DNA from: a virus
DNA: 56,062 bases
IMG/VR virus record: IMGVR_UViG_3300032007_000113
Reading direction: 5' to 3' (one strand)
Part shown: positions 110 through 56,062 of the stretch, in pieces
How the letters are laid out: each line of letters starts with the position of its first letter
Numbering within the stretch: position 1 is the stretch's first letter
Made by a program: the position numbers and the translations under genes
The notes under the pieces: model-generated
Database searches by the model: none
The model's input: the letters and a program-made list of their open reading frames with translations, nothing else
What the model was told of the DNA's origin: nothing

Positions 110-2140
110 ATGCAAGATTTCGACGAACTTAAACAAACCAAGGCGCAGTGCCTGCGGGACATCACCGAGGCACTGCCCGACTACGTGAACCGACTGAACA
201 GCATCGACACGCGACTGCTGACGTATATCGAGGACGCTATCTCCGGCAATGCCAGCCACGCCAACCTCATGGAGCTGCTCGGCATCCGCAAGGAAATGCG
301 ACTGATGGACTCCTACGACCTCGACCCTCAGCGCGTGAAGCGGTCGCTCCGAGCCATCGAGGGACAGTGGGCGAACGGGCGACATGTGAAGGGTGGTCTG
401 CGGTTCTCCACACCGCGAGGCTCGCAGCACGTCCGGCTGATGCCGTTCCAGGTGTGGCTCATCTTCGAGATTTACGCCTTCAAGGTGGACGTAAGCATGG
501 AGCGCGAATACCACGAGGGCGACATGCTGCTGCCTACCGAATGGGTGAAGGACGGCTGGGTGTGGGACACGCGACGGCTGACGCAGGAGGCGCACTGGTT
601 CGTTACTCGTAAGAGTGGAAAGACGGAACTTGGTGCGGCGGTCGATTTCGTAGAGGCGTGCTTCCTCGGCGACGTGAATGGTCAGGTGCTCATCTGTGCC
701 CCTTCAGCCGAATTGTCGAAAATTTCGTTCAAAGCCGTGCGGAATTTCGCCATGCAAATCGACCCGACATGTACGAACCGCATGGGCGGCAAGTACTTCC
801 GCATGACCAAAAACGAACTGAGCTGGCAACCGGGACAAACGATGAAGGGCGAAATCAAAACGATGGCAGCGGGTAAGGTTCCGAAGGATGGTTATTATGC
901 CAGCGTGGTACATGCCGACGAGCACGGACAGCCAAGCTATGTGAACGGTCATTGCGACATGCAAGCATCGGTTGACACTTGTTGGGGCAGTACAGGCCCA
1001 CGTCGTGAGAAACTGCTGATGCACACCACCACAGCCGGACGTGTCAAAGATGGCCCATACAAGTCGAAGATTGAGAACGACGTGGAACCATCGTTGTTGC
1101 GTGAGATGCAGTACCCCCTGGGACAGCCCCACCGCACGCCCGACGACTACTGGTGCGCATTCCTGCTCCAGCTCGACAAGTGGGAGCTGACCGACGACCT
1201 GACGAAGCTCGACGACCCCGAACTGTTCAAGAAGGTGAACCGCAGCATCGGCACCACCGTGCAGCCCACCTACTACCGCGAGCGACTGCACGAAGCCGCC
1301 ACCGGCACCGAAGACACCAAGCAGGAGGTGCTGACGAAGGACTTTAATATGTGGCAGACGGGCAAGGTGACGAAGTGGATCACGGGCGACCGCATCCGTC
1401 CGCTACAGGTGGCGAAACGCATTGAGGATTGCAAGTACATCGACCAAGGGCGCGAGCGTTGGAAGGTGTTCTGCGGCATGGACTTCTCGCACGGCGACGA
1501 CCTCTACGCCCACGGCTATCTGGCTGTCGATTACATGCCGTCGAACACCATGCGCGGACGCTTCTTCTTCGACTGCGATGCGTGGGTGCTCGAGAAGACC
1601 ATGATGGAAAGCCCGAACCGTCCGCTCTATGAGGAATGGATTGCGGGAGGCTGGCTGAAGGTGTGCCCCGGTGAGGTTTTCGACAGCATCTACAGCGTGA
1701 ACCGTCTGGGCGAACTGACCGAGCAGGGCGTGAACATCGTGATGTTCAACTACGACCCCGCGCAGAGCGTCCAGCCCATCAACCAACTGAAGGCATGGCT
1801 TCAGACCCTCTTCCAGAAGCAGCGCACCGACCTCTCGGCCAAGGACATTGCCGACATGATTCAGCGCATGGTGGTGCCCATCAGTCAGACCGCCATGAGT
1901 CAGAACCCCATCATCGGCCACTTGGAAGAGATGATCCTGCGCCCCGACCCGTGGATAGAGTTCTCGGAGAACCCTCTCATCCCCTGGTGCTTCGGCAACT
2001 GCGCCGTGGAGATGGGCAACAGCGACCTGCGCCGCATCGTGAAGGGCGGTCCCGTGCCGACCCACAAGATAGACATCGTTCACGCCCTGGAAGATGCCCT
2101 ACACGGGTTTGATATTACCGAGGGGAGGGTGAGTGAGTAG
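110..2140 (+). CDS. terL: terminase large subunit (Terminase_1-like)
   Basis: 676-aa ORF; Walker-A-like TRKSGKTELGAAV and overall layout typical of HK97/P27-type TerL. Confidence 0.85.
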   Translation: MQDFDELKQTKAQCLRDITEALPDYVNRLNSIDTRLLTYIEDAISGNASHANLMELLGIRKEMRLMDSYDLDPQRVKRSLRAIEGQWANGRHVKGGLRFSTPRGSQHVRLMPFQVWLIFEIYAFKVDVSMEREYHEGDMLLPTEWVKDGWVWDTRRLTQEAHWFVTRKSGKTELGAAVDFVEACFLGDVNGQVLICAPSAELSKISFKAVRNFAMQIDPTCTNRMGGKYFRMTKNELSWQPGQTMKGEIKTMAAGKVPKDGYYASVVHADEHGQPSYVNGHCDMQASVDTCWGSTGPRREKLLMHTTTAGRVKDGPYKSKIENDVEPSLLREMQYPLGQPHRTPDDYWCAFLLQLDKWELTDDLTKLDDPELFKKVNRSIGTTVQPTYYRERLHEAATGTEDTKQEVLTKDFNMWQTGKVTKWITGDRIRPLQVAKRIEDCKYIDQGRERWKVFCGMDFSHGDDLYAHGYLAVDYMPSNTMRGRFFFDCDAWVLEKTMMESPNRPLYEEWIAGGWLKVCPGEVFDSIYSVNRLGELTEQGVNIVMFNYDPAQSVQPINQLKAWLQTLFQKQRTDLSAKDIADMIQRMVVPISQTAMSQNPIIGHLEEMILRPDPWIEFSENPLIPWCFGNCAVEMGNSDLRRIVKGGPVPTHKIDIVHALEDALHGFDITEGRVSE

Positions 2141-8073: not shown

Positions 8074-8075
8074 CG

Positions 8076-8142: not shown

Positions 8143-8146
8143 GAAC

Positions 8147-8173: not shown

Positions 8174-8185
8174 ATAAAAAGAACT

Positions 8186-8623: not shown

Positions 8624-8625
8624 GC

Positions 8626-8672
8626 GGCACATAGTGCCTAATTTATAATTAATAATTAATAATTAATAAATA
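8626..8672 (+). repeat. AT-rich intergenic element (short GC hairpin + TAATTTATAATTAATAAT...)
   Basis: ggcac-ata-gtgcc followed by taatttataattaataattaataattaataaataATG. Confidence 0.7.
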
Positions 8673-36567: not shown

Positions 36568-37776
36568 TTAATTATTATTGTTAAAAAGTCTCGATACTTT
36601 TGCAAAGTCTTCATGCACCATCGTAGCGGTCACCTTGGCATACTTCTGCGTCTCGCGTGTCGTCGTGTGGCCCATCATCTTCGCAAGACTCTCCATCGAC
36701 ACACCGTTGCGCAGCATCCACGTAGCGAAAGAGTGACGTGCCAGGTGCGAGTGCAATCGGGTAGTGATGCCCGTCGCCATCTGGATAGCCTTCAGCGCAT
36801 GGTTGTAGTCGGCGTTACCGATCTTTGGAGCCTGCATACCGTATCGCTCAAGCACGTCAACCACGGGAGGCAGTAGCACGCTGACGTATGCCACACCAGT
36901 CTTCACGCGCTCCTGGTTCGATGTCCACACTCCGTCCACCTTCTTGTATTGCCGAATATCAAACCGCTGCGTGTCCGAATAACTCATGCCTGTATATAAT
37001 TGGAAGACGAACAGGTCACGGGCCACACACATCGGAGAACCTGCCATAGGTCTGAGACTGACAATGGCCTGCATCTCTTCGTCGGTGAGGTATTCCAGGT
37101 TCTCACGCACGCCTCGCTTGATCTCTCCGTTGCCTATCCTGTCATAAGGATTTTTGTCTATTCGTCCTACCCGCATCGCACGGCCAATCATATACTTCAT
37201 GTACTTGTGGTAGTTATACACAGCCCCGTCACTGAGACGTGCCGGTTCCTTGCCAGCCTGTTTGTCGGCTGTTCGCTGACGGCATGGAAGAGCATGAAGC
37301 CAGGTATCCCACTCGTATATGCGCTCAACAGTCAGATCGCACCAGCGCGTCATCTTCCCAAACTGCACCAGACGGTCATACAGCAATTCATAGTGCTGCC
37401 GAGTCCCTTCTGCCATATTCAGCATGGGTATTTCTTTTTTCATCCATTCCAGCAACGTCTCCACGCGCACAGGCTCCTTGGTGCCTTCGAAGCATCGCTC
37501 CTTGATAATATTCACGTCTATGGGTATCCGCTCTTCAATGCACTTGTTGATTTCTTCATTCACCCTGCGAACAATCAGCCCAAGCCGATTATTAAGCGCA
37601 TCCGCGTCAGGACGGGCCACAATCGCCCCTGCCCAGTGCTTTGCACGCACGCGCATACCAGTATTAATATAATACGACTTCCTATCAATGGTCACTCTCA
37701 CTTCGAGCGTCCCTTCTGCGTTCTTATCTTCTTGCGCCACTTTACGACGGTCAAATATTATTCTGGTCGAAAACAT
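36568..37776 (-). CDS. int: tyrosine integrase (Bacteroides phage/CTn type)
   Basis: ARHSFATWMLRNGVSMESLAKMMGHTTTRETQKYAKV catalytic C-terminus (R..H..R/Y); N-terminal arm-binding-like domain. Confidence 0.9.
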   Translation of the reverse strand: MFSTRIIFDRRKVAQEDKNAEGTLEVRVTIDRKSYYINTGMRVRAKHWAGAIVARPDADALNNRLGLIVRRVNEEINKCIEERIPIDVNIIKERCFEGTKEPVRVETLLEWMKKEIPMLNMAEGTRQHYELLYDRLVQFGKMTRWCDLTVERIYEWDTWLHALPCRQRTADKQAGKEPARLSDGAVYNYHKYMKYMIGRAMRVGRIDKNPYDRIGNGEIKRGVRENLEYLTDEEMQAIVSLRPMAGSPMCVARDLFVFQLYTGMSYSDTQRFDIRQYKKVDGVWTSNQERVKTGVAYVSVLLPPVVDVLERYGMQAPKIGNADYNHALKAIQMATGITTRLHSHLARHSFATWMLRNGVSMESLAKMMGHTTTRETQKYAKVTATMVHEDFAKVSRLFNNNN

Positions 37777-44075: not shown

Positions 44076-44088
44076 ATTATTATGAACT

Positions 44089-45342
44089 ATGAACGAAGAG
44101 AGTAACAATTTACAACCACAAGACGCGGCGACGCTACCCAATGCACCCGACCTATTGAGGCAGGACGGATGGTTCGGCACTGACTTGTCGGGATACTGGT
44201 TGCAAGACGACGACAAGTATGAGCAGCCAGTTTGGACGCTATCGTGGTGCGGCATCCCGTTTGCACCACTCGGCAACATCCACGCGCTGACAGGTCAGTC
44301 GGGACACGGCAAGACGATGACCTTCTCGCAGATCATTGCGGCGATACTTGGCGGTCAGTTCGGCAACCTCCGCTGCATCCTGCCGGAAGACGTGAAGCGC
44401 ACGGTGCTCTACATCGACACCGAGATGTCGAAGAACGACACCCTGCGAGTCCGTGAGCGTATCTTCAGGCTGTTGGGCTGGCGATGGGGCGACCATCACC
44501 CAGAACTGCGAATTTTGCGCCTACGAGACGTTCAACCCCCGGAGGTGGCACAACAGCCCACACCGAACGGACAAACGCCACAGCGGGCAGAAAAAGCGGC
44601 AAAAACGGGACTTCCGTTGCAAGAGGCTCGCATTGCCGTGCTACGTTGGAAGATGGTATTGCAAGCCATTTGGGAAATACGACCGACGGTGGCCGTCATT
44701 GACGGTATGTTGGACGTTATCCGTGACTACAACGACATCGAGGAATGTCAGGAGATTATCACCAAGTGCATGCAAGTGAGCAGCTTCTACAACTGTTCGG
44801 TGTGGTGCCTGGTGCATCAGAACCCAGGGCGCAACGACAAGATGGCCGGTTCGCTTGGTTCCATCCTGGAGCGCAAGGTGACTGACATTCTCGCCACGGT
44901 CAAGACCAAGGATGAGAAGACCAGTGCGGTGACGTTCAAGGTGACACAGCTGAAAGCCCGTGGTGCTGACGTTCCCGACTGGCAATACTTCGTCGAAGAT
45001 GACCGTGACCACATCGGTATGCCGAAGATGTTCAGCAACGACACGGAGGCGATGCCCGACGACAAGCGCGATGCATACCGAAAGGAGCTTGACGAGATAT
45101 TCAAGCAGACAGGTGTCGCCAACATGGGCGGCATGAGATACACCGACCTGACTGAGGCACTAAAGAAACTTGGATATACCAGCAACCGCAAGATTGACAA
45201 GATCATGAAGGACGGCATGGCCGAGGGTCTTATCAGGCATGAGACCAACGGACGCTACTACTACAACGGCATCAGCCAACAGCCCAAGGCTGAAGAACAG
45301 CAGATGACGTTCACACAATCAGACGAAAAAGCACCATTCTAA
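44089..45342 (+). CDS. RecA/DnaB-like P-loop ATPase (replicative helicase or loader candidate)
   Basis: Walker A TGQSGHGKTMT, Walker B VLYIDTEM. Confidence 0.65.
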   Translation: MNEESNNLQPQDAATLPNAPDLLRQDGWFGTDLSGYWLQDDDKYEQPVWTLSWCGIPFAPLGNIHALTGQSGHGKTMTFSQIIAAILGGQFGNLRCILPEDVKRTVLYIDTEMSKNDTLRVRERIFRLLGWRWGDHHPELRILRLRDVQPPEVAQQPTPNGQTPQRAEKAAKTGLPLQEARIAVLRWKMVLQAIWEIRPTVAVIDGMLDVIRDYNDIEECQEIITKCMQVSSFYNCSVWCLVHQNPGRNDKMAGSLGSILERKVTDILATVKTKDEKTSAVTFKVTQLKARGADVPDWQYFVEDDRDHIGMPKMFSNDTEAMPDDKRDAYRKELDEIFKQTGVANMGGMRYTDLTEALKKLGYTSNRKIDKIMKDGMAEGLIRHETNGRYYYNGISQQPKAEEQQMTFTQSDEKAPF

Positions 45343-45372
45343 AATGTCACTCCCACTCTTAGCTCCGTACCC

Positions 45373-45417
45373 CCGCCCCCTGTTATCTATCTTTAGATAG
45401 ATAGATAACTGGGGCGG
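45373..45417. other. 18-bp-stem palindrome with GATA repeats between the helicase-like and primase genes (origin candidate)
   Basis: ccgcccc(ctg)ttatctatct-ttag-atagatagataac(t)ggggcgg. Confidence 0.5.
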
Positions 45418-45571
45418 AAGAGGTACCAAGCCAGAGAGCGACGCGCACGCGCAAAAATCAAATAGCAGACCCTATGGCATTAACCGCAGTGTGATTAACA
45501 TTGAACTCAAAGCCGTCCATTCTGACTATCACGACGGGCGGCGGCGCGGGACTAAACGAAACCAAACGACT

Positions 45572-46759
45572 ATGGACAAGATAATCGAACAGAAAATCAA
45601 GGACGCTGCCAGCGTGGTGGACGTCATCGGCGACTTCTATGAGTTGAAGAAGAAGGGCGTGAATTATCAGTGCCTTTGTCCCTTCCACGATGACCGGCAC
45701 ATGGGCTCGTTTGTGGTGAGTCCGCGAAAGAACACCTACAGCTGCTATTCGTGTGGTGCTCATGGCGACGCCATCGAGTTCCTGATGATGAAGCAGGGAC
45801 TCACCTACACCGACGCGCTGAGGTGGCTGGCCAAGAAGTACAACATCGTGATACCAGACGACGCTCACGACGAATGGAGCGACCGGCTGAACAACATCAT
45901 CGAGAAGGCCAAGCAAGCCGAGGCAAGGCGACATGAGCAGATGCAACAGGTCAAGACGCTGTACCTACCAGTCGAGACCCCTGCCGCCATGATGAAGCAA
46001 GCCGCCAACTCCACGTTTGTCATCTGGCTCTACTCACTACCCTGGGACGATAAGCAACGGGCGCGACTGCCGAAGATGCTCAACAACTATGCCATCGGTG
46101 TCAGCCGAGACGGGCTCACGGTGTTCTGGCAGATTGATGAGCAGGCACGGGTACACACCGGAAAGATGATGCGCTACAAGCCGGACGGTCATCGTGACAA
46201 GGACTCGGACTACAACTTCGACTGGGTACACAGCAAGCTCTTCCGGCAGCGCGTGTATAACGAGGAGGAATACGACTACGAGACGTGCCTGTTCGGACAG
46301 CACCTGTTGCCGTTCTGTCCCGATGCCCAGATACACCTCGTGGAGAGCGAGAAGACAGCACTCATCATGGCCACCTACTACGGCAACATGAGCCGCAATC
46401 TATGGCTGGCAACAGGAGGTCTGCAGTTCTTCGACCGCAAGCATATCCAGGTGCTCATCGACCAAGGCCGTGACATCGTAGTCTATCCCGACAAGGACGG
46501 CTCACAGGCGTGGTCAGAACGTACCTACCAGCTATGCAAGGAGACGGGATACAAAAAGTTGAAGGTCAACCCTACCATCGTCAGCAACGAGTGGCGCGAA
46601 GAGGACGGCAAGAAGGCCGACATTGCCGACATCACCATCCGAAAGATGACCAACGACCGCCGCACCAAGGGCAAGGCAGTGCTGACCGACATGATCAGCG
46701 AGAACCCATTGATAGGACAACTGGTAGAGAAGTTGAACTTAGAAGTAGTAGACCTATGA
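45572..46759 (+). CDS. DNA primase (CHC2 zinc finger)
   Basis: CLCPFHDDRHMGSFVVSPRKNTYSCYSCGAHGDAIEFLM; start at ATG 45572 (track start 45491 is GTG). Confidence 0.8.
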   Translation: MDKIIEQKIKDAASVVDVIGDFYELKKKGVNYQCLCPFHDDRHMGSFVVSPRKNTYSCYSCGAHGDAIEFLMMKQGLTYTDALRWLAKKYNIVIPDDAHDEWSDRLNNIIEKAKQAEARRHEQMQQVKTLYLPVETPAAMMKQAANSTFVIWLYSLPWDDKQRARLPKMLNNYAIGVSRDGLTVFWQIDEQARVHTGKMMRYKPDGHRDKDSDYNFDWVHSKLFRQRVYNEEEYDYETCLFGQHLLPFCPDAQIHLVESEKTALIMATYYGNMSRNLWLATGGLQFFDRKHIQVLIDQGRDIVVYPDKDGSQAWSERTYQLCKETGYKKLKVNPTIVSNEWREEDGKKADIADITIRKMTNDRRTKGKAVLTDMISENPLIGQLVEKLNLEVVDL

Positions 46760-46917
46760 GCAGACAACGCACAGCATACTTTTATATGACACCAGACGAG
46801 CGGCGGGAGTACCATCGCCGCAAGGTATGGGAGAGCCAAGAGCGCATTTCTGCACTACGTGGCAAAACCATCAAGCACCGAGTATTCTACAACAATTCAA
46901 CATCAACTAACCAATAG
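46756..46917 (+). CDS. small hypothetical protein (53 aa)
   Basis: ATGA overlap with the primase stop. Confidence 0.45.
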   Translation: MSRQRTAYFYMTPDERREYHRRKVWESQERISALRGKTIKHRVFYNNSTSTNQ

Positions 46918-46920
46918 ACC

Positions 46921-47679
46921 ATGAGCAATCAGAAACAAGTTAAAGAAGGTGGCAATGCAACGCTGTCGGTGAAGGTGTCGCAGGAGACCTACGAGCTGCT
47001 GAACATCCTGGCAGAGGGCATGGAGCACGGCACCAATGCCAACGACCTGCTGAAGATGTTCGTCCAAGCCTTCATCGAGAGTGCTAAGCACACGGGACCT
47101 ATCAGTTCAGAGATGAGCATGCTTCTCAATATGCTGAAGGTAGATGCCGGCTGGAATCAGGCTTTTAACTTTGCCGACGTTACCAAGCAGAAACAGGTGG
47201 CCCAGGTGATACTCATTCTTGAGCAACCCGGACGCGAGGGGTTTGGTGCTGTCATGATCAACCGACCGTTCATCGCAGGCAAAAAGCCATACATGACCTA
47301 CTGCGTTGACGAGATACTGGAACGTGCAACAGAGGTCACCATGAAAGGACTCTACCAGGAACTGCGCGACATTGGCAACGACATCGGAACAGAATCCATG
47401 CGCGAGACGCTGTTCACGCTTTGCGATGCCTACAAGCTGACGCAAGGCGAGCGCGACATCCGTGACGAAGGGCCACAGCTGGGCAACTACTCGGACTTTG
47501 GGCGTGCCATCGAGTACGGCCAGCGAACCAAGCGCAAGAAGCACGTCAGCCCAGACGACATACAGACGCACATCGTGTTCGGTGACGACGACCGAGAGAT
47601 TGCTGACTATGAAGCGCAAGGTTTTGAAGGAGAGATACGGCAACATGAAGAACCACCAACCGACATGACCGATGATTGA
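46921..47679 (+). CDS. hypothetical protein
   Basis: 252-aa ORF. Confidence 0.6.
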   Translation: MSNQKQVKEGGNATLSVKVSQETYELLNILAEGMEHGTNANDLLKMFVQAFIESAKHTGPISSEMSMLLNMLKVDAGWNQAFNFADVTKQKQVAQVILILEQPGREGFGAVMINRPFIAGKKPYMTYCVDEILERATEVTMKGLYQELRDIGNDIGTESMRETLFTLCDAYKLTQGERDIRDEGPQLGNYSDFGRAIEYGQRTKRKKHVSPDDIQTHIVFGDDDREIADYEAQGFEGEIRQHEEPPTDMTDD

Positions 47680-47797
47680 ACCACAGGACTACAAGCTGCC
47701 GACCAAGCAGCAGGAGAAACCAAAAGAAAAGGCCGACCCGGAAACGCTCGACTACTTGGAGAGCCTTCCGTGGCGACCGTTCACTGAAGAATGGTAA
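47672..47797 (+). CDS. small hypothetical protein (41 aa)
   Basis: Start overlaps the upstream stop and its stop overlaps the next start (chain of coupled ORFs). Confidence 0.4.
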   Translation: MIEPQDYKLPTKQQEKPKEKADPETLDYLESLPWRPFTEEW

Positions 47798-47934
47798 CAC
47801 TGAAGATAGACCGCAAGGCGAAGGACTGCTGGCTGATCACCACGACCGACAGCGAGGGATTCCACCGGCAGCTGCCCATCACCTTCGACGATATGCGCGA
47901 ACTGGTAAGACAATGGATAGATGAAGTGATATGA
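47791..47934 (+). CDS. small hypothetical protein (47 aa)
   Basis: ATGGTAA and ATATGA overlaps with neighbours. Confidence 0.4.
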   Translation: MVTLKIDRKAKDCWLITTTDSEGFHRQLPITFDDMRELVRQWIDEVI

Positions 47935-48113
47935 GTAAGAAGCGAGAACCAATACATTTTGTGAATGCCGAAATGATGGCCGACTACCTCGACGAGCATG
48001 ATGGCGAACTGCCGCACCAGTGGCAAGAACGAGAGCCGGACAGACTCAATTATGGTTGTGCCGACATTGATGACATTGACAGTATAATTGCTCAGATGTA
48101 TGGCGACGAATAA
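47931..48113 (+). CDS. small hypothetical acidic protein
   Basis: 60-aa ORF. Confidence 0.5.
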   Translation: MSKKREPIHFVNAEMMADYLDEHDGELPHQWQEREPDRLNYGCADIDDIDSIIAQMYGDE

Positions 48114-48813
48114 GAAACGAAACTGGCGAGGGGTATCTGACAAGGTAGCCAAGGACAAGGCGGACATCTATAACAGCCGAGAGTGGAAGGAGTTGCGCAT
48201 TGCCAAACTCAGGAGCACCGACGGACTGTGCGAAGAATGTCTGAAGCAGGGCATCGTGACCAGTGCCCGATGTGTGCATCATGTGGTGCCGATTGAGACA
48301 GCCAGAACCAAAGACGAGATGCGCCGGCTGGCTATCGACTGCGGACTTCAAGGCTTGAAAGCCCTGTGCTTCGCCTGCCATGCCCGCATCCATAAGGAAC
48401 TGGGCAGCAACACGGCCAAGATAGTCAGACAACGTGCCGAGGCAAGGCAAGACCGATGGGCTGACAACCTACTAAGTAAATTCACAATCAATAATCAAGG
48501 AACTATGCAAGAGAACAAACGACTGGGTATCTTCGGCACCCTGAACTACGACAAGCTGAAGAACATGACAATGGATGAGCGCAAGCTCGCAGTGACTAAC
48601 CATGCAAAGGACGTGCTGAGCCGCAAGACAATGGACGGCAAAGGGCCACAGATACCAGACGACGACCACGATCCATACGACGTGACGGCTGAGTACACCA
48701 TCATGGACTGCCGATACAACAAGCATGGAAAGATTCTCGCCACCTTCAAGGCACAGCGAACCATCGAAGGTGTGAGCATCGAGCTCGTATCGTTCGAGTC
48801 CGTCACCTCATGA
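48100..48813 (+). CDS. HNH endonuclease (packaging-associated position) fused in frame to a ~100-aa C-terminal domain
   Basis: CEECLKQG....HHVVP....CFACHARIH; lies upstream of terS; internal aaggaactATG at 48505. Confidence 0.75.
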   Translation: MATNKKRNWRGVSDKVAKDKADIYNSREWKELRIAKLRSTDGLCEECLKQGIVTSARCVHHVVPIETARTKDEMRRLAIDCGLQGLKALCFACHARIHKELGSNTAKIVRQRAEARQDRWADNLLSKFTINNQGTMQENKRLGIFGTLNYDKLKNMTMDERKLAVTNHAKDVLSRKTMDGKGPQIPDDDHDPYDVTAEYTIMDCRYNKHGKILATFKAQRTIEGVSIELVSFESVTS

Positions 48814-48986
48814 CCCCGGGGACATCGTTTTTCTTGCGACCCCTCTCGGATTCCCAAATCCCCTTGCCCTCTCTTTTATCCACACAGCACATTTCGGGGA
48901 GGGTGCTTTTTTCCGCATCTTAACTTAACGGCGCAAGGTAGCCGAAATGCGCGATATACTCTGAACGCAAAATAATAACGAATAAA

Positions 48987-49361
48987 ATGCCAAAAGCGAT
49001 TTTTACACCTATCCAGCTGCCACCGGAGCAGCCCGACCGGTGCTCACGCTGTCCGCTGCTGGGCAAGCGTCCGCAGTCGGAACTGACCAAGGGCCAACGG
49101 CAGGCGTACTGCTGTCTGGGCGTGTTCACCCACGAAGGCTTCCCGCCCCTCACGTCGAAGGGTGTGGAGCGCAGCGCGTCGGCCTACCGAAAGCAGAAGC
49201 GACTGTTGCACCGCCCCTGCGACGACCAGTGGGAGAAGTGGATGTCGCTGCCTGGTCGCCGTTACCCCATCACGATGGAGGCATGGCGCGAACGTCGCCA
49301 CCCCTACGAACTCGAACAGGAGTTGAAACATTATAAGGACTTATTCAAACAACGTAAATAA
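48987..49361 (+). CDS. hypothetical Cys-rich protein
   Basis: 124-aa ORF between the HNH gene and terS. Confidence 0.5.
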   Translation: MPKAIFTPIQLPPEQPDRCSRCPLLGKRPQSELTKGQRQAYCCLGVFTHEGFPPLTSKGVERSASAYRKQKRLLHRPCDDQWEKWMSLPGRRYPITMEAWRERRHPYELEQELKHYKDLFKQRK

Positions 49362-49363
49362 TC

Positions 49364-49726
49364 ATGGCAAAAGCAGCAACATATCTGAAGGACATCCGCG
49401 CACAGGTCAGGGCGGATCATGGCGGCAAGGTGCCCGACCACTTGAACCTGACCATCCGCAACTATGCGAATGCGCTGGAGATACGCGACCGCTACCGTGA
49501 GAAGATTCTCAGCGACGGCGAGACGATTGTGGAGGTGGGCAGCACGGGGCAGATGACCACCAAGCAGCACCCGCTCTGCGGTCTGCTCTATCAGCAGGAG
49601 ATGCTGTGCCTGAGTTACGCGAAGGCTCTGGGCGGCACGGCGGCGAAGGCGGCAGCGAAGCCGGAGGACAAGGGCGACAAGGATGCCACCAACGCACTCA
49701 ACGAATTTATTGACGGAATGAGATAG
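49364..49726 (+). CDS. terS: terminase small subunit (P27 family-like)
   Basis: 120 aa; KQHPLCGLLYQQEMLCLSYAKALGGTAAKAA resembles the P27 C-terminal pattern; HNH gene upstream. Confidence 0.65.
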   Translation: MAKAATYLKDIRAQVRADHGGKVPDHLNLTIRNYANALEIRDRYREKILSDGETIVEVGSTGQMTTKQHPLCGLLYQQEMLCLSYAKALGGTAAKAAAKPEDKGDKDATNALNEFIDGMR

Positions 49727-49738
49727 ACCACTAATTAC

Positions 49739-49756
49739 ACGAATTGAACGAATAAA
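49739..49756 (+). promoter_or_regulatory. two tandem 9-mers ACGAATNNA
   Basis: acgaattga acgaataaa. Confidence 0.4.
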
Positions 49757-49925
49757 TACGGGGCAGTATTGAGGCGATGACTACAACCTCTTTACTCGGA
49801 GAAACAGCACATGAGAAGCAGTCCTGCCGCCAATAGTCAGGTGTGCAAGGTGACAATAGGTGTGCAATGAGGCAGAAAGCAAAGTACACGCAAGTATGTA
49901 ATACATATTCCGTTCCCGTACTTTT

Positions 49926-50229
49926 GGGGGTATTTTGGTTTTGATTGCTGATGGAAGGCAAGAAATCGTGCAAGCAGTCATGCTTTGAAATGGCAAAACA
50001 AATAAACGCTAAGGTTGTCAATATGACTCCCCGTGCTAACATGCTGGCAGCAGCATAAGCACCTCGCGGGTGACTTGCGAAGGAACATAAAGGTCACGTC
50101 TCACGTTTTCCGCGTTTTCTCAAAATGCGGTGGTGGAACGCTCGTCCAGCTATCTGGTCAGCCCCAACGCACGTAACAAAGTTTCTATAATAAGTCAGTA
50201 AGACGAGGGTTCGACTCCCTCTACCTCCA
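49926..50229 (+). ncRNA. ssrA: transfer-messenger RNA (tmRNA)
   Basis: Acceptor GGGGGTA/TACCTCC with G3:U70; T-arm gaggg-TTCGACT-ccctc; helix 2a ttgctga (49945-51)/tcagtaa (50195-201); tag frame GCA 49993 to TAA 50056-58 encodes AKQINAKVVNMTPRANMLAAA. Confidence 0.85.
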
Positions 50230-50256
50230 CTATCAAACATTAAGCATTATAAAGTT

Positions 50257-50460
50257 ATGGCAAAAGAAACGGAACAACAGACAATGGAGGAGTATCTGCT
50301 CTCGCAGCTGGATACGCCCGTGGTGCTGAAGGACGGCACGATGATGACGAAGCCGGACGGCTCGCCGATGACGAAGCAGGAGGCGATTGCCACGAACATC
50401 CTGAACCTGGCGATGAACCGACGGAGCAGCGAGAGTAGAGCCAAACGGCTTGCCGCTTGA
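50257..50460 (+). CDS. hypothetical protein (67 aa, ends ...AKRLAA)
   Basis: ORF directly downstream of the tmRNA. Confidence 0.5.
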   Translation: MAKETEQQTMEEYLLSQLDTPVVLKDGTMMTKPDGSPMTKQEAIATNILNLAMNRRSSESRAKRLAA

Positions 50461-50505
50461 GCTATGCCGAGTCGCGACGGAGGAAGGCCGATAGGCCAAG
50501 GGCGA
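50457..50505 (+). repeat. divergent copy of the TTGAGCTAT...AAGGGC element
   Basis: cttgagctatgccg...ggcc-gata-ggcc-aagggcga. Confidence 0.35.
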
Positions 50506-50529
50506 CGTGAAGGCAAGCAGTCAGACAGA

Positions 50530-50576
50530 TTTGAGCTATCCCGATAAACGGGATTGCGGCGTAAGCCAAAGGGCAA
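50530..50576 (+). repeat. 47-nt conserved structured element, copy 1
   Basis: tttgagctatcccgataaacgggattgcggcgtaagccaaagggcaa; 45/47 identical to 55000..55046. Confidence 0.85.
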
Positions 50577-50585
50577 AAAACGAAC

Positions 50586-50612
50586 ACGAATTTCACGAAT
50601 TGAACGAATTAG
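50586..50612 (+). promoter_or_regulatory. three tandem 9-mers ACGAATTNN
   Basis: acgaatttc acgaattga acgaattag, 9 nt upstream of ATG 50621. Confidence 0.5.
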
Positions 50613-50620
50613 GAAGGCGT

Positions 50621-50974
50621 ATGAGACTGACATTAAACCATTGTTGCATCGCCGACGTGGAGATGCAAGAGCCTAAGCCGACGGACAACCAACGGAAAGG
50701 CAGACGGGTGTTTATCAACATCGACGAAGAGGATTTCTTTGAAATGCTCGACCATGTGAACCCGAAGAACATCATCAAGTATCTCGACATGCGACGCATA
50801 CCGCACCGCGATAGTCTGGAGATTAACGTGTCGGAAGTCAAAGTGAACTTGAACCACTCGAAGCACATCGACCGAGTGAAGCATGGACTTTATCAGGCGA
50901 ACGTGACGAACCGAAAGAAACTGAATCGGGCACTTGAACTACTCGATAATCTGAAAACGGAAGGAAAGGCATGA
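50621..50974 (+). CDS. hypothetical protein
   Basis: Start at ATG 50621 after aggaagg; the track N-terminal extension covers the repeat elements. Confidence 0.55.
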   Translation: MRLTLNHCCIADVEMQEPKPTDNQRKGRRVFINIDEEDFFEMLDHVNPKNIIKYLDMRRIPHRDSLEINVSEVKVNLNHSKHIDRVKHGLYQANVTNRKKLNRALELLDNLKTEGKA

Positions 50975-51630
50975 CATCGGAAGTATTTAACGTGGATTGC
51001 ATGGACTTCATGCGAGACCAACCCGACAAAGCGTTTGCACTCGCCATCGCTGACCCACCCTACGGCATAAGAGACGCAGGAGGGCAGACGGGAGGAAGCG
51101 GCAAACTGAAAGGCAGGGTGTTCAATAACGGCTACATTGACCGATGGGACAAGGCACCCGACAAGGCTTTCTTCGACGAACTGCGACGGGTAGCCGAGAA
51201 CGTCATCATTTGGGGTGGAAACTACTTCGACCTACCGCCCACGCGGTGCTTCATCTGCTGGGACAAGGTTCAGCCGTGGGAGAACTTCTCGCAAGTGGAG
51301 TTTGCATGGACTTCGTTTGAATCGCCAGCGCAGTTGTTCCGCTTCGACAATCGGACGGGCGACAAGATACACCCAACGCAGAAGCCCGTCGAACTCTATG
51401 CCTATCTGCTGAAGAAGTACGCAAAGGAGGGCGACCGCATCTTTGACCCTATGATGGGAAGTCAGTCGTCACGCATAGCAGCCTACAAACTCGGCTTTGA
51501 TTATGTCGGCTGTGAGATAGACGAGAAATTCTTTGCCGATGGTTGCGCCCGCTTCAATGAGGAGTGCAAGGGCGAAATCAAGTTGAAAGACGGATCAATC
51601 GTCAAACAAGCATCCTTGTTCGACCTTTAA
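50971..51630 (+). CDS. DNA methyltransferase (N6-adenine/N4-cytosine family)
   Basis: AIADPPYGI catalytic motif and DPMMGSQSS AdoMet motif. Confidence 0.8.
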   Translation: MTSEVFNVDCMDFMRDQPDKAFALAIADPPYGIRDAGGQTGGSGKLKGRVFNNGYIDRWDKAPDKAFFDELRRVAENVIIWGGNYFDLPPTRCFICWDKVQPWENFSQVEFAWTSFESPAQLFRFDNRTGDKIHPTQKPVELYAYLLKKYAKEGDRIFDPMMGSQSSRIAAYKLGFDYVGCEIDEKFFADGCARFNEECKGEIKLKDGSIVKQASLFDL

Positions 51631-51688
51631 GATTTTTTATATATCATAGATATATCCCGAAAACCCAAGAAAAATAATGCTGAAAATA

Positions 51689-51720
51689 TTTGTGTAGATA
51701 GAAAAAAGTGCTTATCTTTG
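51689..51720 (+). promoter_or_regulatory. Bacteroidota-type promoter (-33 TTTG, -7 TATCTTTG)
   Basis: TTTG 51689-92 and TATCTTTG 51713-20, 24 nt apart 5'-to-5'. Confidence 0.55.
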
Positions 51721-51725
51721 CCACC

Positions 51726-51906
51726 GCTTACAATATCACGGGAGTATTGTTCTCCTTGCGGTGGCCTCGCATAAAAGTTGGCCGACAAGTCTTACAGCCA
51801 ACGACCATGCGTGGTAAAGAGAGGCACTTTGATGGAATTAAGTCATAGCGACTACCATTGAGCGTAACATTCTCTCTCCACTACAAGGAGCCGTGATGTT
51901 GTAAGC
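51726..51906 (+). ncRNA. structured 5' leader or sRNA candidate closed by a 16-bp long-range helix
   Basis: 51726-51741 gcttacaatatcacgg pairs with 51891-51906 ccgtgatgttgtaagc (one G-U); internal hairpins ttggc..gccaa and ggag..ctcc. Confidence 0.45.
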
Positions 51907-51959
51907 AGCGCAAAATGGCAGTCGCTTTCCTTTGCCTACAACTTAATTCTATTTCAATC

Positions 51960-52235
51960 ATGGGTAAGCAAAAGAAAATCGTGGAGGTTCCCGTAACCTC
52001 AAAAGAAGAACGTGAAGAGTTGCAAACGATTCGCATGACGTTTGTGTGTCTGCTGATGATGATTGTCAATGGCGGTCAAGATGAAGTCGTGAACTTCCTC
52101 AAAGACAAGGATGCCAAGGCAATCAAGGAGTATGCCGAGATTTGGGACAGATGTGCCACCGACCCAGTTGGTGCAATCTTCCAACGTCCGGCATTTGAAC
52201 TATTAGCGAACATTAAGGACACCATAAAGAAGTAG
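51960..52235 (+). CDS. hypothetical protein
   Basis: ATG 51960 (alternative ATG 51915). Confidence 0.5.
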   Translation: MGKQKKIVEVPVTSKEEREELQTIRMTFVCLLMMIVNGGQDEVVNFLKDKDAKAIKEYAEIWDRCATDPVGAIFQRPAFELLANIKDTIKK

Positions 52236-52239
52236 CAAC

Positions 52240-52368
52240 ATGAAAGCGTTCTTTGAAATTATGATGCAAGACTACAAAGCGGAGGGCTTTAGTCTTTGCG
52301 AGTGGGTAGTGTATGGGGTGGTTGCTCCCCTGGTGTTAATCCTCTTATGCGGTTTGTGTCATGGATAA
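52240..52368 (+). CDS. 42-aa single-TM peptide (paralog of 42008..42136)
   Basis: MKAFFEIMMQDYKAEGFSLCEWVVYGVVAPLVLILLCGLCHG. Confidence 0.5.
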   Translation: MKAFFEIMMQDYKAEGFSLCEWVVYGVVAPLVLILLCGLCHG

Positions 52369-52467
52369 CAGACCGAGAGTTAGGCCGAAAGTTCCCGAAT
52401 ACGGGAGCATCGGCAGTATTGTGAAAACTGAATGGGGTTATTTGTTTAACATTTGCCAAAGACCATC

Positions 52468-53259
52468 ATGAACGAAATTCAAGTATTCAACAATCCTCAG
52501 TTCGGAGCAGTCCGAACCGCAGGAACGGCAGACAATCCGATGTTCTGCCTTTCTGATGTCTGCCAAGCCATCGGGATAACCAATGCCCGAAACGTGAAGA
52601 GCAGACTTGACGAAGAGGATGTCCATCTGGTGGACACCCCTACCAACGGAGGTACGCAACAGATAACGTTCGTAACCGAAAGTGGACTCTATGACGTAAT
52701 CATCCGCTCGGACAGCGAGCAAGCCAAGCCTTTCCGCAAGTGGGTAACATCGGAAGTATTGCCCAGCATCCGCAAGCATGGCATGTATGCGACCGAAGCA
52801 ACGGTTGAAAGTATGCTGAACGACCCCGAAAACGCTATCCTCATGCTCCAAGCCTACCAAAGGGAGCGCAAGGAACGACTGGCAGCACAGCAGCAGGTCG
52901 AGAAGTTGGAAGCGCAAGCCATCGAGGACAAGCCGAAAATCATCTATGCCGATGCCGTGAAAGGCTCTACATCGTCGTGCCTAATCGGTGAACTCGCCAA
53001 GATGATTGCACAAAACGGCTATCCCATCGGTGAGAAGCGGTTGTTTCAGTGGTTGCGCGATAATCATTACCTTTGCTCTTATGGTGAAAGGTTTAATCAG
53101 CCTTATCAGCAGTACATCGAGCAAGGATTGTTCACGATGAAGCAAAACGTGTTCAGCGTGGACGGAGAAATGAGAACGCGCAACACTACGAAGGTCACGG
53201 GCAAGGGTCAGATATACTTTATCAACAAGTTCATCGGCCAGCCTCTCGCTTCCGAGTAA
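52468..53259 (+). CDS. Bro-N / KilAC antirepressor-like protein
   Basis: IQVFNNPQFGAVRT....MFCLSDVCQAIG Bro-N; C-terminal IGELAKMIAQNGYPIGEKRLFQWLRDNHYL. Confidence 0.75.
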   Translation: MNEIQVFNNPQFGAVRTAGTADNPMFCLSDVCQAIGITNARNVKSRLDEEDVHLVDTPTNGGTQQITFVTESGLYDVIIRSDSEQAKPFRKWVTSEVLPSIRKHGMYATEATVESMLNDPENAILMLQAYQRERKERLAAQQQVEKLEAQAIEDKPKIIYADAVKGSTSSCLIGELAKMIAQNGYPIGEKRLFQWLRDNHYLCSYGERFNQPYQQYIEQGLFTMKQNVFSVDGEMRTRNTTKVTGKGQIYFINKFIGQPLASE

Positions 53260-53292
53260 ACCCCCGACCGCAAAACAGCCGATATATGAACC

Positions 53293-53345
53293 GTTACCTA
53301 ACAACTTGGCAACTGTTACCTAATAGTTGCGCGATTGTTACCTAA
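53293..53345 (+). repeat. three direct GTTACCTAA repeats with 22-bp spacing
   Basis: GTTACCTAA at 53293, 53315 and 53337, upstream of the HU-like gene. Confidence 0.8.
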
Positions 53346-53389
53346 TGACGGAATCACGACATAATGTTTCATCAATAAAATTTCATGCA

Positions 53390-53875
53390 ATGGCACTGAA
53401 ACTTAAAATCAAAAAGACTCTCCTGAAGCGCAAGGTGGAGGGAGTGACCAAAGAGGGCTACTATGGCCGAGTAATCACCAACGGCACCAAGTCGTTTGAG
53501 GACATCGTGAAGCAGAGCACCCACGGCTCTACGCTCGACTACCGCGAGGCTGAGCTGGCTTGCAAGATGATGATCGACGGCATTGCCGACAGCATCAAGC
53601 AGGGTTACATCGTTGACCTGGGCGTGCTTGGCAAACTCTACCCCGCCGTGAATGGCAAGTGGGACGAGAACGCCGACAACCTCCAGTTGGCCGACATGAA
53701 ACCCAAAGTGAACTACAAGGCCGGTGACGACATCGCCGCAGCCGTGAAGGGTGCATCGCTTTCGTGGACTACCGAGGCAGAGACCGACGAGAACACCGTG
53801 ACCGACGATGACAACACCCAGACGGGCGGCAACGGTGGTAACAACAACCCGCCAAGCGGGGAGCTGGAGGGATAA
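53390..53875 (+). CDS. Bacteroidota HU-like (HU-HIG-type) DNA-binding protein with Gly/Asn-rich tail
   Basis: GYYGRVITNGTKSFEDIVKQ...IKQGYIVDLGVLGKLY pattern; ends SGELEG. Confidence 0.55.
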   Translation: MALKLKIKKTLLKRKVEGVTKEGYYGRVITNGTKSFEDIVKQSTHGSTLDYREAELACKMMIDGIADSIKQGYIVDLGVLGKLYPAVNGKWDENADNLQLADMKPKVNYKAGDDIAAAVKGASLSWTTEAETDENTVTDDDNTQTGGNGGNNNPPSGELEG

Positions 53876-54163
53876 AGGAGACCCACCCCCTGCCCCTCCC
53901 TGCTGAGGGAGGGGAGTAGATAGGACATCGGGGCGTGCGGTATGTCCGCAACGGAGTAACATTTCCCACCTTACCATCGTCAGCGAGACGCTACGGCTGA
54001 CACCCCAGGGGAATGCCGAGAGTTGGGTAACGCCAAACCGCGCCCTGCGTTATTGGAGAAATAAGTGGATTAAAACCTGCTTATTTCTCCATTTATTTAC
54101 ACATTAAGCGAAAAACGCCCGAAAATCGGGCTTATTTATTTTCAATATTCGGAATAAGGAACT

Positions 54164-54397
54164 ATGGCAAAGAAAAAGACACTATCAGAGTACCAAGCCG
54201 CATTTAAGCAGCTGGTGAGAGAAATGGAGCAGGACTTCGGCATACCATGCACGGGAGTTTATATCCGAGTACAAACGCACGTTGACTATGACGAGCCGAA
54301 CCCATTCACGGCTGCGGACTCAGCATCAAGGCGACGTGAACGGCGCGAGGTTCAATGTGAGATTCAGTTTGGCGACTCTTATGCTTTGAAGTTATGA
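54164..54397 (+). CDS. hypothetical protein
   Basis: 77-aa ORF after ataaggaactATG. Confidence 0.55.
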   Translation: MAKKKTLSEYQAAFKQLVREMEQDFGIPCTGVYIRVQTHVDYDEPNPFTAADSASRRRERREVQCEIQFGDSYALKL

Positions 54398-54843
54398 AGA
54401 TAACCATTGACTACAACGGAGCCTTTGCCGTGTGCAACATCGAACTGATGGAAGAGCCTGGCAAGATGGTGAACTTCAACGATGCCGACACCAAGAGTCA
54501 GACCTATGCGATGAGTGCATTCCGCACTATCGAGGAACATTGGCGACGTGAGAAGCAGTTGGAGAAATGGAAGAAACACCCAGTAATGCACATTCAGCGA
54601 GAGTTCCAAGTGCATCCCATGAACTTTGAGCAGATTCAGGAGTTGTCGCAGAAGGGCGTGATACTTCAATGGTCGTATGACGTGAGCCGCAATCCTACAA
54701 TCAGCATCATGTTGAACGACAACCATACGACGGTGGAAGACCACGGGTGGCTGTTGCAAGACATGGAAGGCCGTTGGTGGGGCATGGATAGCGGCTACCA
54801 TCGTATGTTAGAAGAATATAAGAAAATCGTCATCGAGCGGTAG
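54394..54843 (+). CDS. hypothetical protein
   Basis: 149-aa ORF, ATGA overlap. Confidence 0.55.
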   Translation: MKITIDYNGAFAVCNIELMEEPGKMVNFNDADTKSQTYAMSAFRTIEEHWRREKQLEKWKKHPVMHIQREFQVHPMNFEQIQELSQKGVILQWSYDVSRNPTISIMLNDNHTTVEDHGWLLQDMEGRWWGMDSGYHRMLEEYKKIVIER

Positions 54844-54902
54844 CAAATTCTTCACTTTTCACTCTTCACTTCTAAAGTTAAACCCATAAAATCGGATAAG
54901 AA

Positions 54903-55318
54903 ATGGCAAAAGTTAAGTATTATGCCAAGGAGAATTCCACTATCGGAACTCATTCCTTCTATGCCGTACCCATCCCCAACGGCACGCTCACGTTTGACGT
55001 TTGAGCTATCCCGCCAAACGGGATTGCGGCGTAAGCCAAAGGGCAATATATCCCCCTGCATTATAGCCGTCCCCCGATGGGCGGGGGACTCTAAACGTGG
55101 CAACCGCCGAGATGCTCAATGCAGCCAACGGCAAGAGCCGACTGGGTTGCACGGTAGCCGCGAAGTTCAGCCGCCAGTTCTCCGACGAGGTGAGTTGGCA
55201 GAAGGTTGACCCGCAGGCAGCTGCCGCTGCATCTGGCGAGGAGGACATCACCGAGGGTGGCGCTGGCCAAGGTGGCAACCAGGGCGGCGGTACGACTGGC
55301 GGGGAGCTGGAGGGATGA
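54903..55318 (+). pseudogene. interrupted HU-like paralog (N-part 54903..55004, C-part 55097..55318)
   Basis: The N-terminal 33 aa (..HSFYAVPIPNGTLTFDV) stop at TGA 55002; the C-part is in another frame and ends GGELEG like 53390..53875; the central HU core is missing and is replaced by a 95-nt insert. Confidence 0.5.
55000..55046 (+). repeat. 47-nt conserved structured element, copy 2
   Basis: tttgagctatcccgccaaacgggattgcggcgtaagccaaagggcaa; its TGA is the stop of the interrupted HU-like ORF. Confidence 0.85.
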
Positions 55319-55323
55319 CCTTC

Positions 55324-55358
55324 GGGATGTAAGATGTAAGATGTAAGATGTAAGAGGG
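55324..55358 (+). repeat. five tandem heptads (A/G)(A/G)GATGT
   Basis: gggatgt aagatgt aagatgt aagatgt aagaggg. Confidence 0.75.
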
Positions 55359-55386
55359 CTGACGGGTGTCGGCTCTCTTGTTTTTA
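55352..55386 (+). terminator. rho-independent terminator (paralog of 8105..8142)
   Basis: 12-bp stem aagagggctgac/gtcggctctctt, loop gggt, then gttttt. Confidence 0.75.
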
Positions 55387-55389
55387 CCA

Positions 55390-55413
55390 AGAATTTGAGA
55401 ATTGGAGAATTAA
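55390..55413 (+). promoter_or_regulatory. three tandem 8-mers AGAATTNN
   Basis: agaatttg agaattgg agaattaa, 13 nt upstream of ATG 55426. Confidence 0.5.
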
Positions 55414-55425
55414 ACAAAAGGAACT

Positions 55426-55890
55426 ATGAGACAGATTAAATTTAGAGCGCAAGACATTGCGAGCAACAAATGGTTGTATGGTGACCTGAGACACCATAAG
55501 GACGACGTTTGCATCTTCGAGCAAGGAGGCACGAAGGGCGAACAAGTGAAACGTGATACCATCGGGCAGTTTGTCGGGCTGAAAGACAAGAACGGCAAGG
55601 AAATCTACGAGGGCGACATCATCAAATCGACCGACTACCCGTTTATGGATGAGGGCAAAGTGAACTATCTGGGCATCGTGTCATGCGACACCCACGACAC
55701 TATTGGCGAGTTCTATGTGATGCTCTACGTAACCAAGGAATCGGAAAGGCGCGGCATCAGCAACTTCACCAACAAATCGTTCTACGACTTGCAGATGGAA
55801 AACGTGGAGGTGGTCGGCAACATCTTCGACAACAAGGGAATGTTCCGCGATAGCGACGATGTAATCATGCTTTGGTATTTGGAGGACTGA
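55426..55890 (+). CDS. YopX-family protein
   Basis: MRQIKFRA....GQFVGLKDKNGKEIYEGDII....VVGNIFDN. Confidence 0.75.
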   Translation: MRQIKFRAQDIASNKWLYGDLRHHKDDVCIFEQGGTKGEQVKRDTIGQFVGLKDKNGKEIYEGDIIKSTDYPFMDEGKVNYLGIVSCDTHDTIGEFYVMLYVTKESERRGISNFTNKSFYDLQMENVEVVGNIFDNKGMFRDSDDVIMLWYLED

Positions 55891-55893
55891 CGT

Positions 55894-56062
55894 ATGACAG
55901 AAGAAGAACTGAAGAAAGTACCCTTCCGTGAGACCTGCCACATGGCTATGGAAGGCGAATACACAACGACGTACATGAGCAAGGACGGACGGCTGGGCTT
56001 CTGCGACCATGTGCCACGCGACAAGTATGGCATGGTGAAGAAGGGCGGTCGTGCCGTCCGCC
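55894..56062 (+). CDS. 5' part of the small hypothetical CDS that wraps the junction (continues at 31..104)
   Basis: ATG 55894; frame is continuous through the terminal overlap. Confidence 0.55.
   Translation, partial: MTEEELKKVPFRETCHMAMEGEYTTTYMSKDGRLGFCDHVPRDKYGMVKKGGRAVR

Follow-up and report, generated by a model that had tools for sequence, protein, structure and literature searches.

The window analysed here, the whole 56,062-nucleotide (nt) stretch of virus record IMGVR_UViG_3300032007_000113, contains a gene for transfer-messenger RNA (tmRNA). This 305-nt gene was the sole gene that ARAGORN called in the whole window, and the Rfam model RF00023 matched the same place (49926-50232) with 69.7 bits (E 4.1e-25), above its gathering score of 47 bits, which is the curated threshold. 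The match covers model positions 1-374, the full model. An earlier note on this DNA had proposed a full-length tmRNA at this place and had named covariance models as a check, and both programs bear the proposal out. No other RNA family exceeded the Rfam threshold in the window. CCA is not encoded by the gene, whose 3' end reads ...CCUCCA-C-UA. These results indicate that the window gene is a genuine tmRNA. An open reading frame (ORF) of 103 amino acids (aa) at 49731-50042 on the - strand runs antisense to the tmRNA; its tblastn matches merely mirror the conservation of the tmRNA, and it is therefore not to be annotated as a gene.

The window begins and ends with an exact direct terminal repeat of 30 bp (1-30 = 56033-56062). 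The repeat shows that the assembly closes into a circular genome of 56,032 bp, in which the tmRNA is internal and not part of a host flank; a host flank or an assembly artefact is thus ruled out. The gene content is that of a temperate, tailed phage. When the window was compared by blastn with the locus L035, whose gene for the large terminase subunit (terL) is 80% identical to that of the window, the window up to 49733 aligned with L035 up to 1310 and the window from 50256 aligned with L035 from 1309, with nothing held by L035 between the two alignment points. Because these 522 bp are missing from L035, the tmRNA arrived as a cassette. No tmRNA was found in relatives with a terL 78-87% identical to that of the window, searched up to 10 kb on each side of terL, and the 67-aa ORF that follows the tmRNA has 90-96% nucleotide identity to 67-aa genes of L035 and L037, both of which lack a tmRNA. 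Upstream of the cassette lies a probable gene for the small terminase subunit (terS); in L028 and L029, whose terL is 78% identical to that of the window, the homologous 120-aa gene directly overlaps terL. In the window, the terS-terL gap is filled by ~6.4 kb of cargo (49727-56062 and 1-109), tmRNA included, and this gap is an accessory-gene hot spot in the lineage of the window phage and L035. The circular assembly and the clean insertion confirm that the gene is phage-encoded, as the earlier note had claimed, and its placement of the tmRNA between terS and terL also holds, since the insertion lies just after terS with terL downstream across the circle. The features of the locus and of the genome are listed in Table 1.

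Table 1. Features of the tmRNA, its cassette and the phage genome (window positions), with three features of the contig L005 (positions of that locus)
Feature	Position	Strand	Evidence or remark
tmRNA gene	49926..50230	+	ARAGORN; RF00023; 96.4% of structure cells paired over 33 homologues
tmRNA cassette, 522-bp insertion	49734..50255	+	blastn against L035; 192-nt leader, tmRNA and 25 nt trailing
Acceptor stem GGGGGUA/UACCUCC	49926-49932 / 50222-50228	+	G3:U alanine identity pair; invariant in 33/33
Helix 2a, UUGCUGA(U)/(G)UCAGUAA	49945-49952 / 50194-50201	+	100% paired; 5/8 pairs compensatory
Helix 2c	49961-49966 / 50181-50186	+	100% paired
Helix 2d	49967-49971 / 50169-50173	+	100% paired
Pseudoknot 1 (PK1)	49972..49994	+	stem 1 49972-49975/49982-49985; stem 2 49977-49981/49990-49994
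Frame-setting element U(-5) A(-4)	50003..50004	+	read in sequence: ...AAAUAAAC-GCU
Tag frame	50008..50058	+	GCU resume codon 50008-50010 to UAA 50056-50058; ARAGORN coding part 83-133
Helix 5 equivalent	50033-50037 / 50058-50062	+	98.8% paired; U-A to C-G in 10 sequences
Pseudoknot 2 (PK2)	50064..50097	+	50064-50067/50077-50080; 50070-50076/50091-50097
Reduced 3' domain replacing PK3/PK4	50098..50168	+	~70 nt, two hairpins
Hairpin P	50110-50118 / 50122-50130	+	stem covaries
Hairpin Q	50146-50149 / 50154-50157	+	
T-arm, loop UUCGACU	50205-50209 / 50217-50221	+	100% paired
Discriminator A	50229	+	read in sequence
HNH endonuclease	48088-48813		upstream of tmRNA
Probable terS, 120 aa	49364..49726	+	weak Pfam Terminase_4 match, E 0.0055
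67-aa ORF	50257..50460	+	starts 27 nt after tmRNA
DNA methyltransferase (cargo)	50971-51630		
Ant/Bro protein (cargo)	52453-53259		
HU-HIG protein (cargo)	53327-53875		
YopX (cargo)	55426-55890		
terL	110..2140	+	PHROG 9, E 1.5e-57; ~6.4 kb downstream of terS on the circle
SNF2-type helicase (terL-portal stretch)	3630-4826		
PAPS-reductase-like protein (terL-portal stretch)	4813-6090		
Portal	25924-27288		
Tape measure	30441-32945		
Tyrosine integrase	36568..37776	-	Pfam Phage_integrase, Phage_int_SAM_5, Arm-DNA-bind_5; Bacteroidota-type N-terminal domains; ~12 kb from tmRNA
Primase	45491-46759		
GOLLD RNA (L005)	269-682		327 bits
SmpB homologue (L005)	784-1188		41% identical to E. coli SmpB, E 2e-23
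tmRNA of another type, ~398 nt (L005)	1899-2296	-	64.7 bits

The structure of the RNA was written from the sequence together with a covariation search. Viral and metagenome contigs together yielded 51 genes of this tmRNA family, with 33 distinct sequences; the pairs were counted first on 18 sequences and then on these 33. Over the 33 sequences, 96.4% of the cells were standard pairs, compared with 40-48% when the 3' partners were slid by 1-3 columns. Compensatory changes, i.e., changes on both sides of a pair, occurred in 25 of the 64 pairs (112 cells), and 0 of 500 shuffles reached the observed values. The acceptor stem is invariant and hence uninformative for covariation; breaks that it appeared to have in a previous count were an artefact of the alignment register in four rows with one U fewer. 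Helix 2 as a whole (2a, 2c, and 2d) contains six compensatory pairs, including one in 2c/2d that changes from A-U to G-C in seven sequences. The stems of PK1 were 98-100% paired with four compensatory pairs, and one pair is split 16/17 between A-U and G-C. The stop codon and the last part of the tag lie within the equivalent of helix 5, and PK2 was 99-100% paired with five compensatory pairs. In the PK3/PK4 stretch, the Rfam alignment sets 9 nt against 103 model positions, and the 3' domain that stands there occurs in the family in two subtypes of length and sequence. The stem of its hairpin P was found as CCGCG/UGCGG, CCCUG/CAGGG, GUCCG/CGGAC, and CCAAG/CUUGG. Candidate pairings of the invariant UGGUGGA and CAGCCCC within 50098-50168 gained no support, as they either show no covariation or clash with PK2, and no pseudoknot was established in this stretch. 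In the T-stem, three of the five pairs are compensatory (GAGGG/CCCUC versus AGCGG/CCGCU). The acceptor stem with its G3:U pair, helix 2a, and the T-arm with the discriminator A, all described in the earlier note, are thus present, and its expectation of fewer pseudoknots than usual is also supported, in that PK1 and PK2 covary and the PK3/PK4 stretch is reduced. Pseudoknots 2-4 of E. coli tmRNA can be replaced without loss of activity (PMC2481249), and the reduced 3' domain is therefore compatible with function. These results clearly indicate that the fold is under selection.

The tag is AKVVNMTPRANMLAAA, 16 codons long, and ARAGORN and the Rfam alignment agree on its start at GCU 50008. A79 (-4) is invariant and U78 (-5) is at least 90% conserved across the family, with a spacing equal to that of the frame-setting U85/A86 in E. 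coli (PMC2481249). The earlier note had read a tag of 21 codons from GCA 49993; the true resume codon and the shorter frame replace this reading. G49993 and C49994 pair in stem 2 of PK1 and covary there, the GCA triplet at 49993-49995 is GUA or ACA in other members, and the 21-codon frame is broken in L022 and L082 by a 1-nt deletion between the GCA triplet and the true resume codon. The frame from GCU is open in 51/51 genes, which have 20 distinct coding versions of 16-17 codons, the stop always falling at one position (TAA, in a single case TGA). Residues 1-10, AKVV(N/D)(M/L)TP(R/C)A, are nearly invariant across unrelated phages, whereas residues 11-13 vary. The tags end in AAA, KAA, IAA, or KVA preceded by L or R, with the terminal A, and usually AA, kept; none of these ends is the LAA-type degron that the earlier note had assigned to the tag. 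Synonymous changes were found at codons 1, 5, 9, 10, 13, 14, 15, and 16, a sign that the frame is translated, and codons 2-4, 7, and 8 are invariant including their third positions. These results indicate that the tag reading frame is under selection.

A scan of viral contigs with a 3' 25-mer brought in another 12 tmRNAs, 302-325 nt long and nearly identical in their tags, and a tag-based scan gave 6 more full-length genes. Retrievals independent of the tag, which searched viral contigs with a pattern from the PK2 loop and metagenome contigs with a 5' 22-mer, yielded no other kind of tmRNA and no tags but AKVV... ones. The PK2-loop pattern, with which members carrying other tags were sought, gave 8 extra loci, none with a tmRNA by ARAGORN or Rfam. 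Among 185,579 species-representative genomes, a 20-mer of the tag had 2 matches (Butyricicoccus and Pristimantibacillus), neither with a tmRNA; by our own estimate from the size of the collection and the length of the pattern, ~2 matches are expected by chance, and the two were rejected as prophage copies in bacterial genomes. No match was found by blastn of the tmRNA, or of 44000-56062, to 50,697 deposited phage records. The carriers fall into at least 4 flank groups that share no proteins, with a flank GC content of 41-58% and contigs of 1.3-142 kb. The window tmRNA is 97.7% identical to that of L016, 96.1% to that of L015, and 95.0% to those of L003 and L004, with terL identities of 46%, 63%, and 63-70%, respectively. 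Such near-identical tmRNAs in distant phages point to horizontal movement of the cassette, to strong purifying selection, or to both. The tmRNA is located in phages and is mobile.

The evidence points to a host among the rumen (ruminant gut) Bacteroidota, probably Prevotella. A terL 78% identical to that of the window has been deposited as 'MAG: Prevotella sp.', the contig samples include ruminant gut sets, and the integrase and HU-HIG domains of the window phage are Bacteroidota-type. The nearest isolate phages infect Bacteroides, and the terL of the window is just 25% identical to those of phages F1, F2, and F4. We compared the window tmRNA with the host type of the Bacteroidota. Neither encodes CCA. 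The acceptor stem is GGGGGUA in the window and GGGGCUG or similar in the host type, which at ~397 nt is ~90 nt longer, and the phage tag AKVVNMTPRANMLAAA is unrelated to the host-type GENNYALAA, being longer, basic rather than acidic, and without LAA. The resemblance to Bacteroidota tmRNA that the earlier note had seen holds for the D-loop-like motif GGUUUUGA, common to both, and for the last 29 nt, which are 83-90% identical; nothing else aligns. With alignment limited to these 29 nt, the gene is not a recently captured host gene that has suffered deletions. A decaying, non-functional fragment of host ssrA, left by imprecise excision, would fit the length of 305 nt versus ~397 nt in Bacteroidota as well as the Rfam alignment, which has a low average posterior probability (0.59) and one large gap, but its chance is close to negligible. 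Beyond the 29 nt there is no nucleotide similarity to host-type tmRNAs, the 33 sequences keep both the fold (25 compensating pairs) and the frame, and the gene is spread over unrelated phages. A captured ssrA fragment, which the earlier note had named as the finding that would overturn its reading, is contradicted by this covariation and frame conservation.

A scan for ENNYALAA followed by a stop found 34 viral-contig loci (L047-L080), and all 18 of the loci checked with ARAGORN hold GENNYALAA tmRNAs, 17 of 395-399 nt and one of 336 nt. Several of the matches are no more than a few hundred bases from the end of the locus or contig, and may reflect prophages integrated at ssrA. Such prophages would speak for a rival reading, in which the window gene is an attP-type copy of ssrA through which the phage enters the tmRNA gene of the host and restores it. 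Many temperate phages use the 3' end of ssrA in this way, and in cluster K1 mycobacteriophages a core of 24 bp comes from the 3' end of the tmRNA (PMC3203893); the window phage is likewise temperate, with an integrase, and has sequence matching the T-arm and acceptor end of a tmRNA, the last 29 nt being those that resemble the Bacteroidota gene. We nevertheless consider this reading very improbable. The K1-type cores of ~24 bp lie beside the integrase gene (PMC3203893), the normal place of attP cores, whereas the window has a complete, full-length gene under selection ~12 kb from int. Relatives with the same integrase Pfam domains (Phage_int_SAM_5 and Phage_integrase, a likeness by domains alone) have no tmRNA, several copies of the same tmRNA stand at the end of tRNA arrays in larger phage contigs, and a second copy of either tmRNA end was not found in the window. 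An att site, moreover, needs neither covariation over the whole body nor a conserved frame.

No SmpB was found in the window phage by tblastn with E. coli SmpB (best E 0.76), a search that found the SmpB of L005 at 2e-23, and the phage has no tRNA genes. Without an SmpB of its own, the RNA would have to use host SmpB and must compete for it, which would also suit a decoy or inhibitor that binds host SmpB, alanyl-tRNA synthetase (AlaRS), or the ribosome and so blocks host trans-translation. The RNA of mycobacteriophage DS6A that consists only of the tRNA-like domain (TLD) has been proposed to act in this way, a TLD-only molecule being noted to inhibit tmRNA strongly, perhaps by titration of SmpB (PMC4131195), and the nucleotide-level invariance of the early tag codons fits a role of the RNA itself. 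A decoy, however, needs no frame, and yet U(-5)/A(-4), PK1, a frame of 16-17 codons, the stop, and the alanine-rich end are kept in 33/33 sequences, with synonymous changes. The full mRNA-like domain is retained: unlike the DS6A mimic, the window tmRNA keeps the resume codon, the frame, the stop, PK1, and PK2. We therefore regard a decoy as distinctly unlikely.

By its parts, the window tmRNA is of the bacterial one-piece kind (SsrA, RF00023). Both have the tRNA-like domain with G3:U, T-arm, and discriminator A, the long helix 2, PK1 before the frame, U(-5)/A(-4), PK2, and a short frame that ends in alanine with its stop inside helix 5. They differ in that the PK3/PK4 region of the window tmRNA is ~70 nt with two hairpins and its tag ends xAA, not LAA. 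The tmRNA of E. coli is ~363 nt long, compared with 305 nt in the window. Phage tmRNAs as a kind are already known. They have been listed since the cluster C genomes of mycobacteriophages (PMC4131195), and ARAGORN finds a tmRNA in 402 of 18,146 isolate phage genomes (2.3%; PMC9004378). The listed carriers include a 78-kb siphovirus, and in huge phages the tmRNA occurs together with SmpB (PMC7162821). The remark of the earlier note that a tmRNA is unusual here is to be tempered by these figures. Known phage tmRNAs (cluster C Bxz1 and others, Bacillus phage G, huge phages, and Melnitz) all lie within phage genomes, sometimes beside tRNA genes, and their function has been proposed, not shown (PMC4131195, PMC7162821, PMC9004378). 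By contrast, the carrier in the window is a 56-kb temperate phage without tRNAs or SmpB, with the gene in a 522-bp cassette between terS and terL; and the tmRNA of Methylophilales phage Melnitz is two-piece, permuted, and riboswitch-linked, whereas that of the window is one-piece. The window family is distinguished by its compact body with two supported pseudoknots, its private conserved tag, its phage-only distribution, and its defined mobile cassette.

Other tmRNAs were met in the scan with the 3' 25-mer. L005, L012, and L017 share this 25-mer and hold unrelated tmRNAs of ~398 nt (Rfam 65-85 bits). In L005 (IMGVR_UViG_3300032307_000722, a 28.7-kb contig), a GOLLD RNA, an SmpB homologue, and the tmRNA lie within 2.1 kb (269-2296), and the tmRNA of L012 is near-identical to that of L005. 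L017 has a one-piece tmRNA of 397 nt at 107-503 (85 bits) in a contig whose genes are AT-rich and phage-like. L018, which also shares the 25-mer, has a permuted tmRNA at 920-1179 (RF04321, 52 bits), and the L006 locus, sharing it too, holds a tRNA-Ala. As for the genome around the cassette, cargo interrupts the packaging and head genes: in addition to the ~6.4 kb in the terS-terL gap, ~24 kb (2141-25923) separates terL from the portal gene. The close relative L035 has, at 4702-8789 upstream of its terL, three paralogous HU-HIG genes, a Sequestin-domain gene, and a gene with an S-adenosylmethionine-synthetase N domain.

About 120 nt of the cassette leader are partly common to the window and L015, and the leader of the window contains the palindrome TATGTAATACATA at 49895-49907, 19 nt upstream of the tmRNA. 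A TAnnTTTG-like motif (TACTTTTG) was rejected as the tmRNA promoter since it ends at +1 of the mature RNA, which is too near. The sole 'terminator' call, at 49912-49931, consists of a G-run and a T-run at the 5' end of the tmRNA. Within the 40 nt upstream of the tmRNA, ten other loci (L002, L007, L021, L023, L024, L025, L003, L004, L010, and L026) have a GC-rich hairpin that stops 2-5 nt short of the mature 5' end, followed in most of them by a T-run, e.g., GGAGCCGT...ACGGCTC-TACTTTTTC-GGGGG. In L008, L013, and L094, a tRNA-Ala stands in place of this hairpin.

We consider it likely that the window gene makes a functional tmRNA that performs trans-translation, including the case in which a special tag or counter-defence matters. 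The parts needed for function are all present: G3:U, T-arm, helix 2, PK1, U(-5)/A(-4), and the resume codon. Charging, use of SmpB, tagging, and a benefit to the phage are what we infer from the established tmRNA pathway. The RNA would be transcribed with neighbouring late or cargo genes, its 5' end would be trimmed by RNase P, and its 3' end would be completed by the CCA-adding enzyme of the host. Host AlaRS would charge it with alanine via the G3:U pair, and it would bind host SmpB and EF-Tu and enter stalled ribosomes. The ribosome would then switch to the internal frame at GCU 50008, append A-AKVVNMTPRANMLAAA, and terminate at UAA, by which it would be released. The benefit to the phage would most likely be extra capacity for ribosome rescue, and the rescued products would bear the phage tag, so that their fate may differ from that of products with the GENNYALAA tag of the host. 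Rescue on phage messages, re-tagging, and counter-defence are roles that the earlier note had likewise suggested as possible.

Several observations weigh against a functional tmRNA of this kind or loosen the argument for it. No promoter or terminator was recognised around the tmRNA in a scan limited to sigma-70-type sites, and the hairpin with T-run in the leaders of other family members is terminator-like, yet leaves no space for a promoter. The conservation of codons 2-4, 7, and 8 may reflect a constraint on the RNA rather than on the peptide. The phage tag lacks the LAA motif, which is considered critical for ClpXP in E. coli (PMC9382460); LAA is common, not universal, in tmRNAs, those of Mollicutes ending in FA (PMC9382460), and a tag without LAA therefore does not exclude membership among tmRNAs. 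The assignment of the host is indirect. Finally, we found no report that demonstrates the function of any phage tmRNA, although no dedicated search was made.

Within the reading as a functional tmRNA, the tag could itself be the main point, if it gave rescued products a fate other than that of host-tagged ones, for instance by directing them to another protease or adaptor, by slowing their decay, or by serving as a signal to the phage, or the RNA could counter a defence that cleaves mRNA or tRNA and so stalls ribosomes. The tag is longer than GENNYALAA, unrelated to it, basic, and without LAA; its first ten residues are near-invariant across unrelated phages even in the tag-independent retrievals, and the cassette lies among accessory cargo (DNA methyltransferase, Ant, and HU-like genes). 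On the other hand, it is the nucleotides of the first codons that are conserved, and selection may therefore not act on the peptide; no partner protein travels with the cassette, whose flanks differ; and we found no experimental precedent. We judge this emphasis on the tag or on defence to be unlikely.

A broader proposal, which we put forward tentatively and with considerable doubt, is that of a phage-only tmRNA lineage that moves as a cassette of ~0.5 kb among unrelated rumen phages and either reprograms the output of trans-translation or counters host defences in which cleavage of mRNA or tRNA stalls the ribosomes. If this were true, rescued host and phage products would receive a basic, non-LAA tag, AKVVNMTPRA-x-x-[L/R]-x-A-A, with a fate unlike that of GENNYALAA-tagged products. 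For the benefit that phage tmRNAs bring to the phage, the window family offers a clean test case: it is small, its fold and frame are under selection, and its 522-bp cassette is present or absent in near-identical backbones. As the tag is unlike that of the host, tagged products would be separable by mass spectrometry. The window phage shows that a tmRNA gene can also occur outside the large phages that have translation gene sets of their own: here it is accessory cargo in a temperate phage of intermediate size, one of gut or rumen Bacteroidota.

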